A DNA stretch of 31,011 nt from Balneolales bacterium (GTDB taxonomy: Bacteria; Bacteroidota; Rhodothermia; Balneolales; Natronogracilivirgulaceae). Both the position numbers and the translations under genes were made by a program. A model generated the notes under the pieces. The model worked only from the letters and a program-made list of their open reading frames with translations. It was not told where the DNA came from and searched no databases. Position 1 is the first letter of the stretch. The number at the start of each line of letters is the position of its first letter. Of the stretch, positions 1 through 11,516 are shown piece by piece. Location of the stretch: NCBI GenBank assembly GCA_007135895.1, contig SLHZ01000287.1:1-31011 (forward strand). Direction: 5' to 3'.

Positions 1-3000
1 AAGAATTCATCGGGTCCGTCAAGATAACCGAACACGCGCGTTCGCATCTGAATACGCTGTGAAGCGAGCATAAAACCGTAGCGCAGTTCCGCCTCCATGG
101 AGTGGTTGTGAAACTGATCGTAAATAGGAATGAGTGTCCCGTCCCGTATGTCATAAGAGTCGAGCAGTTCGCTTGGTTCATACCGGTAGCGTATGATGCC
201 TCTCCAACCTAAGGGGGCGATATCACGATGCGGTTCCGGATACGTGAGATTGAAGATCCAGGCCGTTGTCCAGGTAGAACCCGAATAATAGCGTGAAGTC
301 GATCCCGGGATCTCCTGCCGGTACTCCCTTGAATAGAATGATTCGGTGGATACCCGGTAAGGGCTGTAGTGATAGCCGAGTTCAAGCAGGCTCCAGCGAT
401 TCAGCTTGCTGATAAGGCTGACCTCCAGCTGCCACATGTTGTAGGCGATATCGGTGGCGGTGGTATCCGGCAGACAGGCTGTACAGGGGAACTCCTCAAT
501 CTGGAGGCCATCCTGTACGTTTCTCCTGATATTGAAAAATGCCAGTGAGACGGTGGGAGACCAGTGCCGCTTGATGAACGGGAGTCCGGCATATTCCACT
601 TCAAGGAACAGGTCGCGGTCCAGACTGACCAGCCTCCCGGGCGCAAAGAAATTGCTTACACCGTCACTGGAGCGTGATCCGGGGCCAAAGAGAGCACCAC
701 CGAAAATACTGAACCGTTCGCGCATCTCCCGTGATGCAAAGTAGGCGCCGGTTTTGAAGTCACGCCACATATTCGCGCCGAAGTCACCATATTCTCCGGA
801 TCTGAGCAGGGTGGTGTTGCTTCCACGCATACGGGAATAGGTATCAAGCCGGAAGACGGGATAAAACTGGAAAGAGGTAAACTGGTCTTCGTAGCGGTAG
901 AGCTGCCGTTCAGACGATGAGCCTCTTGTCGGAAGCTGAAAAGTATAGGGTGTGTGTGCGCTGTTTTCCTTGACAGCGGATTTCAGCGGTTTGATATCCG
1001 TGTCGTCATAGTCATTGAGATTCCATGAGGAGTCATGTGCAGGATATCTCTGTGAATATCCCGCATCAGAAGCATGAAATGACGAGGTGACCACATCAAA
1101 TATCATTTCAGTGAGATCCAATAAAGCGATTTTGTATCCGTCGGAGCGGTATTCTGAATAGAGGAGCAGCTCGTTTTCCGGATGGGGAGAGGGCATGAAG
1201 GCGCCTCCGGCGACGTTGGTGATCCGGTAAATCTGTTTGTCGGTAAAATCAAGGCGGTACACATTAAAAGCTCCGGAGATATCGGCACTGAAATAGAGGT
1301 AGCGCCCGTCGGGGCTCAGGACAGGATCTCTGAAATCGACGGATTCATCTGCAAGGACGGGTTCTGCCGGATAGGTCCTGCCGGGCTGATCCTCTCCGTA
1401 AGCTCGAAACAGGCCGGATGCGGGAAGCTCTATCTCTATTCGTCCGATATTCCGGTTTCCCGTGCTGGAGTAGGCGAAATAGATAGATTGGCCGGATGGA
1501 TGCCATACCGGCCGGTAAACCTGTTCTCCATTCCGGAAATCAGTCAGCCGGATCAGAGAGTCTTTTTCGACATGATAGAGGAAGAGGTTGGTGGACCCGT
1601 CCTCGATTTTCCCGGCAACAATCGTTTTCCCGTCGGGACTCCATGCGGGATCCTGGAGCCGTTGGTTGCGGGTCAGCCGCCGGCTTTTTCCGGTTTCCAT
1701 ATCGTAGAGGTGGAGGTCCCTGTACTGTTCACCATAGCGGTTGAGGGATGCTCTGCTGTAGGCAATGCTGCTGCCGTCCGGGGAGAAGCTGAAAGAGGTC
1801 TCAAGGCGCCGGAGCAGGGTCTGGTTTAAATGACACGAAAACATGTGTTGGCCGCCGGTGCGGTGTTGCTGATTACCTCCTGATGCATGGAATCGGCGGG
1901 CGGACATATTGTTGTCCGGGTGGCTGGCCTGTTCGTAGATAAGGTTTTCAAAAGCCGTCGATTCAATGGCATGGCCAGTATCTTCGATATCTCTGAGGAT
2001 AAGTTTGGCCACGGCGCTGTAAGTTTCCTTGTTGGAAAGGTAGGCCAGCTGCTTGCCATCGGGATGGAAAACCGGGTGCATATTGAAAAAACCTTTGGTT
2101 TCGACCCACGTCCGGTTGTCCGGCTGGCTGTCCCGGCCTTCCATAAAAATATCATAACGGGCTTTCCGGTCTGCGATCCAGTCATCAAAGAGCTCCGTTC
2201 CGGGAATACCGGTGGCCTGTTCAATGGCCTTGTCGACGTCATGGGTTCCCCGTTGGCTGAATATGCGCGTAATATCGGCCAGTGCCTGTTCTCCGAGACG
2301 TTCTGCTATGTAGCGGGTAAAATCAAAGCCCTGGTTATAGACAAGCTCTCTTTCAAGGGCTGTTTTGGAATAGAAGGTCCCCATCTTTTCCAGTCCCAGA
2401 TAAGTGCCGTCCAGGATGCGGGTGCGTAAAAGCATGTCACGGTGGCTGTCCCAGTCATCATAAAAGATATTGGCACGCATGAACTGGGCGGTGCCTTCGG
2501 CAAGCCAGGCCGGCATGGTGATGCCGGATAGTGGATAGGAAATGATGGTATTCGGGAAGCCGTAGAGTACATCGGGTCGCCGGACCTCTTCGTAGGAGAG
2601 CCATTGCAGATAGGTCGCCGGATGGCGGCGGCTGTTCTTCATGGCGGCCTGAAGCTGGATAATGTGGGTGAACTCATGGGTAATCACATTGCGCAGCCAG
2701 TCATGTGTTCCCCTGAGCGGTGTATCGAGGGAAGGCAGCCAGATTTCAATTTTGTTATCATAAAAGAAAGCTGCGCCATTGGAGTAATCCAGCCGGTCGA
2801 TAAGGAGAATGCTGATTTTATGATCGGGCTCATGATTGTACAACTCCGTGATGGGAATGTAGATTTCCTCGGCTATCCGTGATATCACCTGAGCCGGCCG
2901 GCTGTTGCCCTCCTGAAAATGGACCAGGAAGTGGTCGCTTTCAATAGTATACCATTCCAGATGATGATAGGGGTAATTATAGAATACCGGGTTGCGCTGA

Positions 3001-10500: not shown

Positions 10501-11516
10501 AACCATTGTGTGCCCGATTTAATACGCGACTCCGACTTTTCCAGGTCTTCTTCCAGCCAGCGGAAATCCCGGAACCGGTCGATGTCACGCACCGCCGAAC
10601 CGCCAGGAGAAGCAGCTTCAAGACGCAGCCCCCGTTGCCCGCCAATGGTCAGAAAGACATAGTTGCTGTTGCTGAAGGGATGAAGCCGGTGATGATATTG
10701 CCTGGTGGTTTCGTTGAAAAAAGCGCGATCGGGTCCATTGGCGAAAAAAAGGATCCGGTCCTGATCATCGAAACGGCCATTGTTTTCACCTTCCACCAGA
10801 ATCGGTATCTGACGAAGCTCCGGCCGCGGATCCGCGTTGCGGTGCGGGAGTTCGTAGCCCGGTGTAGTCCAGATCTGGATATTCCGGGGATCTATGGTTC
10901 CGGTTTCAATACCCAGTTCACTCAGATAAGCGGCATCCAGTATGTAAATGTCGTCGGCCGGTATGGGGATCTTGTACCAGTCACCCGAGGAAAGCGGGTT
11001 CTCCGCTACTTGCGCAATCTCAGCCGCCCGACGAATGGCGGAAGGATCAGGGTCGTCATCAAAGACACGGATACGCATCGACCTGACAACCTGAAAGGTC
11101 TGACTTCCTTTTTGATTCTGCCGTGCCAGATGAATGGTCAGCGGGACAACCATTTGCCCCCTTGAATAACCGGGGTTTCCGGTTTCAATGACCGGGGTTT
11201 GCCGGTCGCTGATCAGAAGAAGGGACGGATCCTGAACCAGTTGCTGTTGGCTGGAATCGGCCTGTACAGGGACGATTTCCTGCTCCAATACCCTGAAGCG
11301 GGCCTGTCCGTCCCGGTAGGGTACCAGCAGGTACTCCGGTGCTGTGATGAGAAGCGAGGGATTGGATATCTCGTAGTCGGCAAACCCGGGTGCGGTGGCA
11401 ATACGGCGCAGCTTTTGAGAGCCGGATTCATCTGGCAAGCCCAGGGTGATAACAATACCCGCCAGAAAGAAGATAAACAGTCTGCTTATTGCCATTGAGT
11501 GGAAAGTGCCCTGCAT
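7554..11516 (-). CDS. porU: Type IX secretion system sortase PorU (peptidase C25, gingipain fold), 1320 aa
   Basis: LSSGDWYKIPI, DYIIIT, YLLLFGDTTYDYK, SDDFF and VGRLPV motifs. Catalytic FSGHG (His 9087-9089) and TATCSFG (Cys 8985-8987). LLGDPAMRI, then RAWDVFNN, and a CTD with YNYPNP and GTYLYHL. The start may be the Met at 11495. Confidence 0.94.
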   Translation of the reverse strand: MQGTFHSMAISRLFIFFLAGIVITLGLPDESGSQKLRRIATAPGFADYEISNPSLLITAPEYLLVPYRDGQARFRVLEQEIVPVQADSSQQQLVQDPSLLLISDRQTPVIETGNPGYSRGQMVVPLTIHLARQNQKGSQTFQVVRSMRIRVFDDDPDPSAIRRAAEIAQVAENPLSSGDWYKIPIPADDIYILDAAYLSELGIETGTIDPRNIQIWTTPGYELPHRNADPRPELRQIPILVEGENNGRFDDQDRILFFANGPDRAFFNETTRQYHHRLHPFSNSNYVFLTIGGQRGLRLEAASPGGSAVRDIDRFRDFRWLEEDLEKSESRIKSGTQWFGQGFDPVHSHSQVIMTDTLHGFVQGSDIEVWFSMGARSLETSRFSFTVNGSTALPTLPINSIPSLTAATHLSARIAELRQTLTGFSLQNDIITIAATFENPSSASRGWVNWIRIRAERRLSAHNGRLLFLSPDNGNGELVRYLMTGFSREPFVLDITDPIQPVKLEVQAQGGQHTVIHSSLPGKRILARDTFRRPPAGEEMANQNIRNPSVYPDYIIITAEPFTEEAERLAGYRFERDGLIPVIVTQNQIFNEFNGGVPDFTALRDYVRFLYLRAGAAGRPLPRYLLLFGDTTYDYKNIVANPVMRNFVFTYQSEESIHRTNSYGSDDFFTFMGDNEGLWPQASTPGNPINLMDLGVGRLPVQTRDEARLLVDKIKTYEDHRNRGEWQNLFTFIADDDVAGRSNDGDLHIFNADGTAEVIDQDATGIRLEKIYQISFPFENTSAGRRVPQATQAMIDRINDGTLVFNFSGHGAEQFLTDQRLFSSDDIGRLHNRDRLGIMVTATCSFGRFDDTEDQSGAEKLLLHPDGGIVAAFTTTRVVFTAPSPAVLNMGLNIALTRAMTRRDDDGLPKRLGDIFRETKNTPVGTVFNSRKFILLGDPAMRIGLPEARAEITEINDLPVQPDTLFELRALDRVSLSGHILRPDGTVDTGFNGEASIRVFDAKRLVRYPDLPWVADNDCYLDNCGYHVQTDALFNGRVSVSSGTFRSEFIIPKDVSYSTRSGRAHVFAREQTGSATGANSGFRIRSRNPDAMDDGKGPDITIYLNDELFTDGGIVNDAPQLIVLLNDNTGINTTGAGVGHEIVAIIEDRNDETSRNTIVLNDYYLSDLDDFTSGRIEYPLNNLREGSYRLRVRAWDVFNNLGEAEIHFQVLDSSELQIRNVYNYPNPMHQFTHFIFEHNQPGVPMDVNIRIFTLSGKPVTTIRREQLITSGNMVRIDWHGRDDDNHRLASGTYLYHLQVRADTGQGRQTQDKIERLVIFR

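Follow-up and report, generated by a model that had tools for sequence, protein, structure and literature searches.

A conserved gene block linking porU and porV to an inactivated M6-like protease and a peptidase-Omp85 protein: a probable type IX secretion system accessory cassette

What do the two large envelope genes that follow porU and porV in a Balneolales genome do, and do they belong to the T9SS (type IX secretion system)? The locus lies at one end of a 31,011-bp contig (C177), analysed in full and referred to here as the window, of a metagenome-assembled genome (MAG; 67% complete, 358 contigs). Positions 1-11516 hold four minus-strand open reading frames (ORFs) in the order porU-porV-M6i-G4, where M6i is the third gene, encoding an inactivated M6-like protease, and G4 the fourth, encoding a peptidase joined to an outer-membrane barrel (Table 1). 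An earlier note had proposed that the last two genes form a lineage-specific attachment or surface quality-control module that replaces or supplements PorZ and PorQ. Comparison of gene content and order across the phylum suggests that the block, together with a fifth gene encoding a protein with a DUF5683 match, is probably an old and conserved T9SS accessory cassette linked to PorV, which would stand beside PorZ and PorQ and not substitute for them.

The order of the four genes is kept far beyond this genome. We excised the surroundings of M6i at 20 loci, drawn from genomes that represent at least 13 families of the phylum, and 17 of them carry porU-porV-M6i-G4 in the same order and on the same strand. 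A second set comprised 80 loci found with the G4 profile, 58 of which have at least 9 kb upstream: 49 of these hold all four genes, five hold porV-M6i-G4 and four hold G4 alone. M6i is also present in 8/8 of the shorter loci that leave enough room for it. Carriers include Balneola, Gracilimonas, Fodinibius, Rhodohalobacter, many Rhodothermales, among them the complete genome of Roseithermus sacchariphilus (CP030158), Ignavibacteria and one MAG labelled Chlorobiaceae. Synteny beyond this genome, which the earlier note had set beforehand as one test of its proposal, is thus found across classes of the phylum. The epithet lineage-specific does not fit a cassette that is widespread and old and reaches from Balneolales to Ignavibacteria. 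The genes that flank the block vary by class (a thiolase gene in Balneolales, others elsewhere) while the block itself stays, so general synteny alone was rejected as an explanation.

M6i and G4 are gained and lost together. M6i was detected in 132 of the 301 genomes of the phylum and strong matches to G4 likewise in 132, with identical counts in each family; hits to G4 in 13 further genomes reach the level of the PD40 repeat only (E 1e-17 to 1e-23). The M6i stop overlaps a possible G4 start (by -4 or -1) in 38 of 54 loci, a count that takes the nearest possible start and is therefore somewhat generous, and the two genes appear often to be translationally coupled; the gap is 91 nucleotides (nt) in this genome. 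In two lineages 0.7-1.7 kb are inserted between them (L021:9508-11234 and L028:10069-10761; genomes G040 and G033).

The fifth gene encodes a protein of about 320 amino acids that matches DUF5683 weakly, and it comes after G4 in about 60 of 64 loci. Here it would lie past the end of the window, and neither this gene nor the missing end of G4 was found on any other contig of the MAG. In Rhodothermales an AhpC/TSA-like gene (about 220 amino acids; L092:13331-13999) stands between G4 and the DUF5683 gene. The DUF5683 protein of locus L014 (13487-14518) has a signal-peptide-like start, a hydrophobic DUF5683 segment and no NCBIfam family, and its C-terminus (...GFNYRF) resembles an outer-membrane beta-signal.

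Two further observations concern the spread of the block. In a distant lineage (L118) genes of the PorV family, M6i-like (417 bits) and G4-like follow one another, and the gene directly upstream is not porU; the PorV-family gene (L118:3045-5225) encodes 726 amino acids with an extra N-terminal part and a faint Reg_prop (propeller) signal, so that it is perhaps a PorV fusion. The pattern is thereby confirmed inside Bacteroidota and in one distant lineage. The full cassette is also carried by four MAGs labelled "uncultured Chitinophagales bacterium" (L038, L043, L053, L055), with G4 proteins 48-50% identical to our query, as in Balneolaceae, and judged by these sequences the labels are probably wrong.

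Within the window the description of four co-oriented genes with short gaps and no terminator between them holds on every count. Coordinates were checked by translation, and the gaps are 46 nt (porU/porV), 34 nt (porV/M6i) and 91 nt (M6i/G4; 13 nt if an upstream ATG is used). A terminator scan returned 13 sites, against 11.1 +/- 3.6 expected from shuffled sequence. None falls in an intergenic gap of the four genes, and the minus-strand sites all lie inside the coding sequences of porU, porV, M6i and G4.

The first two genes were rightly called as porU and porV. PorU matches NF033707 at 1033 bits (cut-off 420) and PF01364 at E 1.5e-89, and PorV matches NF033710 at 283 bits (cut-off 250) and PF19572 at E 3e-34, so that both exceed the curated NCBIfam cut-offs. 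On the PorQ and PorV2 models PorV scores 87 and 44 bits only. Both proteins are canonical, already known parts of the T9SS.

M6i is a full-length member of NF052323 (1137 bits, cut-off 600; model positions 7-1042 of 1043), a curated NCBIfam equivalog described as a T9SS-dependent M6-like inactivated metalloprotease. It ends in a C-terminal sorting domain (CTD) recognised by PF18962 (E 3.3e-08; 34.2 bits, cut-off 27) and by TIGR04183 (29.1 bits, cut-off 23). In the AlphaFold2 model, which has a mean predicted local distance difference test (pLDDT) of 87.6, residues 32-571 superpose on InhA2 of Bacillus anthracis (4yu5) with a Z-score of 21.1, residues 571-940 form an eight-bladed propeller of the BamB/YxaL type (Z about 22), and the CTD sandwich comes after it. 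A search of the PDB with the M6i sequence profile returned propeller proteins only. The HExxH motif is present in 0/47 family members from across the phylum. The three key columns of the zinc site are occupied by A/S/G, S/N/T/Q and S/N/T in these proteins, and many invariant polar residues persist in the dead M6 domain. With a Sec signal, a CTD, an InhA-like fold devoid of its zinc site and a propeller, M6i is best read from its sequence as a non-catalytic T9SS cargo or surface component. The initial reading of it as dead-protease cargo bearing a propeller and a CTD is borne out, the CTD being of type A.

G4 is cut by the contig end, and we took the full-length protein from a 97% identical homolog (P0005) and its locus L014, which agrees with the window at 97.5% identity across 12,975 nt. 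The model of P0005 (pLDDT 83; predicted template modelling score 0.83) contains a signal peptide, a peptidase (residues ~25-310), a TolB-like propeller (316-657) and a barrel (731-1164). The full protein matches no NCBIfam family above cut-off. Its peptidase gives a weak Peptidase_MA_2 match (PF13485, 24.6 bits, below the cut-off of 32.4), and a sequence search of the PDB with this domain returned nothing meaningful. The residues H131, E132, H135 and E191 (HEFTH ... AWLAEGT) are invariant in 36/36 aligned G4 homologs across the phylum, and G4 is accordingly predicted to carry an intact gluzincin site of the Peptidase MA clan, with HExxH and a downstream Glu. The propeller is matched by PF07676 (PD40; E 2.9e-23) and by TolB structures (2ojh and 1c5k, Z 25).

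The barrel was placed by structure. The last 475 residues (690-1164) have no Pfam match at E<=1, hence none to the Omp85 family PF01103. The modelled barrel is matched by BamA of Deinococcus radiodurans (Z 21.3), FhaC (20.8), BamA of Fusobacterium nucleatum (20.5), TamA (20.1) and Sam50 (19.3), and Foldseek aligned the barrel of Escherichia coli BamA with it at E 8.8e-06. A candidate for the Omp85 loop-6 motif (V/I)RG(F/Y) is a GGxxGMRSY...GG stretch at the place expected for L6 by sequence, with invariant Y1027, G1029, G1030, Y1037 and G1044. The GMRSY motif lies past the contig end of the window, as does the C-terminus, which reads FDFEF in P0005 and L014. The model has no POTRA domain, and peptidase and propeller precede the barrel instead. 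As modelled, G4 thus has an Omp85/BamA-type, presumably 16-stranded barrel in which the POTRA arm is replaced by a zinc peptidase and a TolB-like propeller, and the model and the structural matches agree with its first description as a protease-propeller-barrel protein.

Structural look-alikes over the whole length of G4 include TP_0304 and several AlphaFold clusters that bear the names "Peptidase MA-like" and "surface antigen D15", and a profile search retrieved 3751 cluster representatives of the superfamily at E<=1e-30. TP_0304 of Treponema pallidum (Swiss-Prot O83326) shares the peptidase-propeller-Omp85 build with G4 (template modelling scores 0.58/0.65, 11% identity). It is uncharacterised, appears in published work only among highly variable loci, and by this shared build would be a candidate outer-membrane protein.

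Natural losses indicate which part of the block forms its core. In five Balneolaceae genomes that are 98-100% complete, four of one genus (g10; G172, G200, G292 and G296) and G104 of another, we found no PorU, PorZ or PorQ above cut-off, while the same five keep SprA and porV-M6i-G4. In G172 (locus L017, G172:C3:747325-767324) the series Cys/Met-lyase, thiolase, porV, M6i and G4 is the order of Balneola minus porU, and porV-M6i-G4 without porU also occurs in the Rhodohalobacter/Balneolaceae loci L044, L060, L062, L063 and L073. Because the cassette survives the loss of PorU, PorZ and PorQ, its core is porV-M6i-G4, with or without the DUF5683 gene, and is independent of the sortase branch; the link would be with PorV and SprA instead of the PorU sortase. 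The dependence on the attachment complex that had been proposed is therefore doubtful. The five genomes also encode many CTD-tagged ORFs.

Replacement of PorZ and PorQ by M6i and G4 was rejected. This genome encodes a canonical PorZ on contig C77 (374 bits, cut-off 260) and a canonical PorQ on contig C254 (265 bits, cut-off 220), and PorZ is present in 203/301 genomes, including those of nearly every cassette-bearing family. M6i has no match to the PorZ model NF052228 beyond a CTD, with no NF052228 hit in its own scan, and within the window this model touches only the CTD-like tail of porU. G4 matches no model of the PorV or PorQ family. The idea that its barrel stands in for PorQ or PorV fails on the structural matches, which are to BamA, TamA and FhaC at Z 20-21; Omp85 topology would moreover put the soluble domains of G4 in the periplasm, so G4 should not be a structural stand-in for PorQ.

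A reading of the locus as a PorU2/PorV2 system was likewise rejected, with no PorU2 found in this incomplete MAG and one PorV2-like gene below cut-off on another contig (C159:685-1743; 262 bits on NF052325, cut-off 325). The genome also holds another pair of a CTD protein and a barrel, on contig C34 (C34:10445-11266 region, locus L010): an ORF of 1148 amino acids with a CTD-like end is followed after about 60 nt by a gene for a PorV/PorQ-family barrel of 344 amino acids (85.7 bits on the PorQ model, below cut-off).

Several observations weigh against so close a tie between the cassette and the T9SS. T9SS-bearing families without the cassette exist (f22, f26, f29 and others are PorZ-positive), so type IX secretion in itself can do without it. 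These cassette-free families score highest on the PorZ model, which was built on Bacteroidia, and by this measure they are probably Bacteroidia themselves. In families f24, f39 and f50 M6i and G4 are both encoded, at separate places, and G4 stands alone in L108, L110, L112, L114, L116 and L117, so it is not intrinsically a T9SS part. G4-like builds also occur where no T9SS is expected, as in TP_0304 of T. pallidum and in clusters labelled Myxococcota; so old and broad an architecture does not of itself belong to the T9SS. That the G4 peptidase faces the periplasm is drawn by analogy from BamA, TamA and FhaC, and from all Omp85 proteins with solved structures. Finally, 18 of the 19 listed public runs hold the cassette sequence of this genome, nearly all of them DNA metagenomes from soda lakes, salt lakes or lake water, and the sequence is on record from DNA metagenomes only, with no RNA run among the 19.

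For the PorV-linked cassette a mode of action can be sketched. By Omp85 topology, the N-terminal peptidase and propeller of G4 should lie under the outer membrane and face the periplasm. In that position G4 would be a peptidase gated by its propeller, with T9SS-related polypeptides as substrates, such as stalled, unfolded or misfolded CTD cargo or PorV-bound material, and M6i, exported via the same T9SS, would be its non-catalytic binding partner across the outer membrane, the whole being tied to PorV and SprA rather than to the sortase. We offer this specific proofreading or disposal mechanism tentatively. Going further, porV-M6i-G4-DUF5683 could be an ancestral trans-outer-membrane T9SS device lost by Bacteroidia, in which a T9SS-exported pseudo-protease would cap the surface or serve there as receptor, an Omp85 barrel would be the conduit or anchor, and a propeller-gated zinc peptidase would work in the periplasm; we hold this to be doubtful. 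Were it true, Omp85 proteins would gain a new task, for instance to proofread or dispose of cargo at the secretion pore, and where PorU, PorZ and PorQ are missing the device could step in to process cargo.

A different account takes the genes for a general quality-control or biogenesis module of outer-membrane proteins, with a BamA-like barrel, a BepA-like protease and a BamB/TolB-like propeller, placed near porV through shared envelope regulation only. The likeness of the barrel to BamA, TamA and Sam50 (Z 19-21) fits this account, as do the size of the superfamily (3751 representatives), the G4-like proteins of T. pallidum and other taxa without a T9SS, the lineages in which G4 stands alone, and the comparison of WD40-Omp85 proteins to a BamA-BamB fusion in the survey by Heinz and Lithgow (2014; PMC4104836). 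It leaves out that within the phylum G4 tracks the CTD-tagged cargo M6i family by family and is missing from many families with an ordinary outer membrane, that the M6i-G4 junction is predicted to be translationally coupled, and that the block stays with porV across classes while its flanks change. We consider it unlikely.

The model of the earlier note, in which M6i and G4 are a third pair of CTD protein and barrel in the surface attachment complex, like PorZ-PorQ and PorU-PorV, with M6i anchored on G4 for attachment or surface quality control, seems to us quite improbable. M6i does share with PorZ a type-A CTD and a propeller, its gene adjoins that of G4 and seems coupled to it, and very long hairpins in the G4 barrel model could protrude from the membrane; the retention of M6i-G4 in genomes without PorU, PorZ and PorQ would also fit a substitute role there. 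However, the G4 barrel is of the Omp85 type and not of the FadL-like type of PorV, PorQ and PorP that is known to hold CTDs, M6i resembles the PorZ model in its CTD at most, and this genome has canonical PorZ and PorQ in addition to the cassette, a combination that for PorZ occurs almost everywhere.

Least credible is a nutrient-acquisition device, in which surface M6i would capture proteins or peptides for degradation by the propeller-gated G4 peptidase after passage through or past the barrel: propeller plus peptidase is typical of oligopeptidases (the matches include S9 peptidases and Tricorn-type domains) and the polar residues left in the dead M6 domain suggest a kept binding site, but no peptide-use transporter or regulator is conserved in the block, the strict porV linkage is left unexplained, and import of polypeptides is not known for Omp85 proteins.

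Table 1. Coordinates in the window of the four genes and of the domains and motifs discussed in the text
Feature	Position	Strand	Description
porU	7554-11516	-	T9SS sortase, 1320 amino acids; Peptidase_C25 domain and its own C-terminal CTD-like tail
porV	6386-7507	-	T9SS outer-membrane shuttle barrel, 373 amino acids including signal peptide; start Met = MLKKISLICF..., checked by translation
M6i	3160-6351	-	1063 amino acids; signal peptide, InhA-like domain, eight-bladed propeller, type-A CTD
M6i degenerate zinc motif ANIGSFLGLPD (for HExxHxxGxxD)	5509-5541	-	Located by translation
M6i beta-propeller, residues ~571-940	3532-4641	-	PQQ/BamB-type profile match and structural matches (Z 19-22)
M6i type-A T9SS C-terminal sorting domain, residues 981-1053	3193-3411	-	PF18962, TIGR04183
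G4	3-3068 (or 3146)	-	Predicted gluzincin, TolB-like propeller and Omp85 barrel; cut by the contig end at residue 1022 of ~1164
G4 HEFTH, predicted zinc-binding/catalytic motif	2664-2678	-	Located by translation; H131, E132 and H135 invariant
G4 AWLAEGT, presumed third zinc ligand (Glu)	2490-2510	-	Located by translation; E191 invariant
G4 PD40/TolB-like beta-propeller, residues ~316-657	1098-2123	-	PF07676 and TolB structural matches
G4 barrel, first part, residues ~731-1022	3-878	-	Omp85-type in the model; remainder past the contig end

Directly upstream of porU the window carries a thiolase-family gene (11708-12892, minus strand); TIGR01930 gives 327.6 bits for the copy in L014, which is 97% identical to it. 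Its position is kept in Balneolales (L014, L015, L017) and not in other classes.

Nearly all knowledge of the T9SS stems from Bacteroidia (Porphyromonas, Flavobacterium), which are probably free of the cassette in this sample. If porV is indeed accompanied by three extra envelope genes in Balneolales, Rhodothermales, Ignavibacteria and further lineages, the parts list taken as "standard" for the system would be that of a reduced lineage. For the subfamily of WD40/peptidase-Omp85 proteins, named in 2014 and to date assigned no role, the cassette would moreover provide a functional context for the first time. Genomes that have naturally lost PorU, PorZ and PorQ but kept the cassette offer a ready-made comparison, and the question is testable in cultured Balneolaceae and Rhodothermales.

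The searchable literature, consulted on the cassette, on M6-like T9SS proteins and on porU/porV neighbourhoods outside Bacteroidia, yielded no description of the cassette or of a T9SS link of the Omp85-peptidase. The present analysis adds that M6i and G4 agree in their counts family by family, that porU has been cleanly deleted in genomes that also lost PorZ and PorQ, and two confident models. The closest known system is the attachment complex PorU-PorV-PorZ-PorQ of Porphyromonas gingivalis (PMC8545088, PMC5562754, PMC12365241). As there, porU and porV are canonical, here adjacent, and M6i is a large CTD protein encoded beside an outer-membrane barrel gene, like PorU and PorZ, with a propeller like that of PorZ. 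Unlike that complex, the block has PorZ and PorQ encoded elsewhere in the genome, G4 joins an Omp85-type barrel to an apparently intact zinc-peptidase site, and the cassette is retained by genomes in which a search for PorU, PorZ and PorQ found none of them.

Each of the two added proteins also has relatives of its own. M6i is already catalogued, with no function attached, in NF052323, whose traits it shares over the full length (dead zinc motif, M6/InhA fold, type-A CTD); that entry is a naming model only, whereas the fixed place of the gene between porV and the Omp85-peptidase gene is not described in the searchable literature. InhA2, the M6 protease of Bacillus that serves as structural template for the N-terminal half of M6i, differs in that M6i lacks all three of its zinc-site and catalytic residues. 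For G4, BepA provides a functional analogy as a periplasmic zinc protease at an Omp85 machine, the BAM (beta-barrel assembly machinery) complex; BepA is an M48 protease with tetratricopeptide (TPR) repeats, whereas G4 is a predicted Peptidase_MA-type gluzincin covalently fused to the barrel. In architecture G4 is closest to the WD40-Omp85 subfamily, which the accessible text of Heinz and Lithgow (2014; PMC4104836) names with no function and no mention of a T9SS link, and which a later paper (PMC11358297) restates as having "WD40 and peptidase domains". Like these proteins, as that text presents them, G4 has a barrel preceded by a TolB-like propeller and no POTRA domain; in G4 the gluzincin site is in addition intact and invariant by its residues, and the gene is tied to porV, M6i and the DUF5683 gene.

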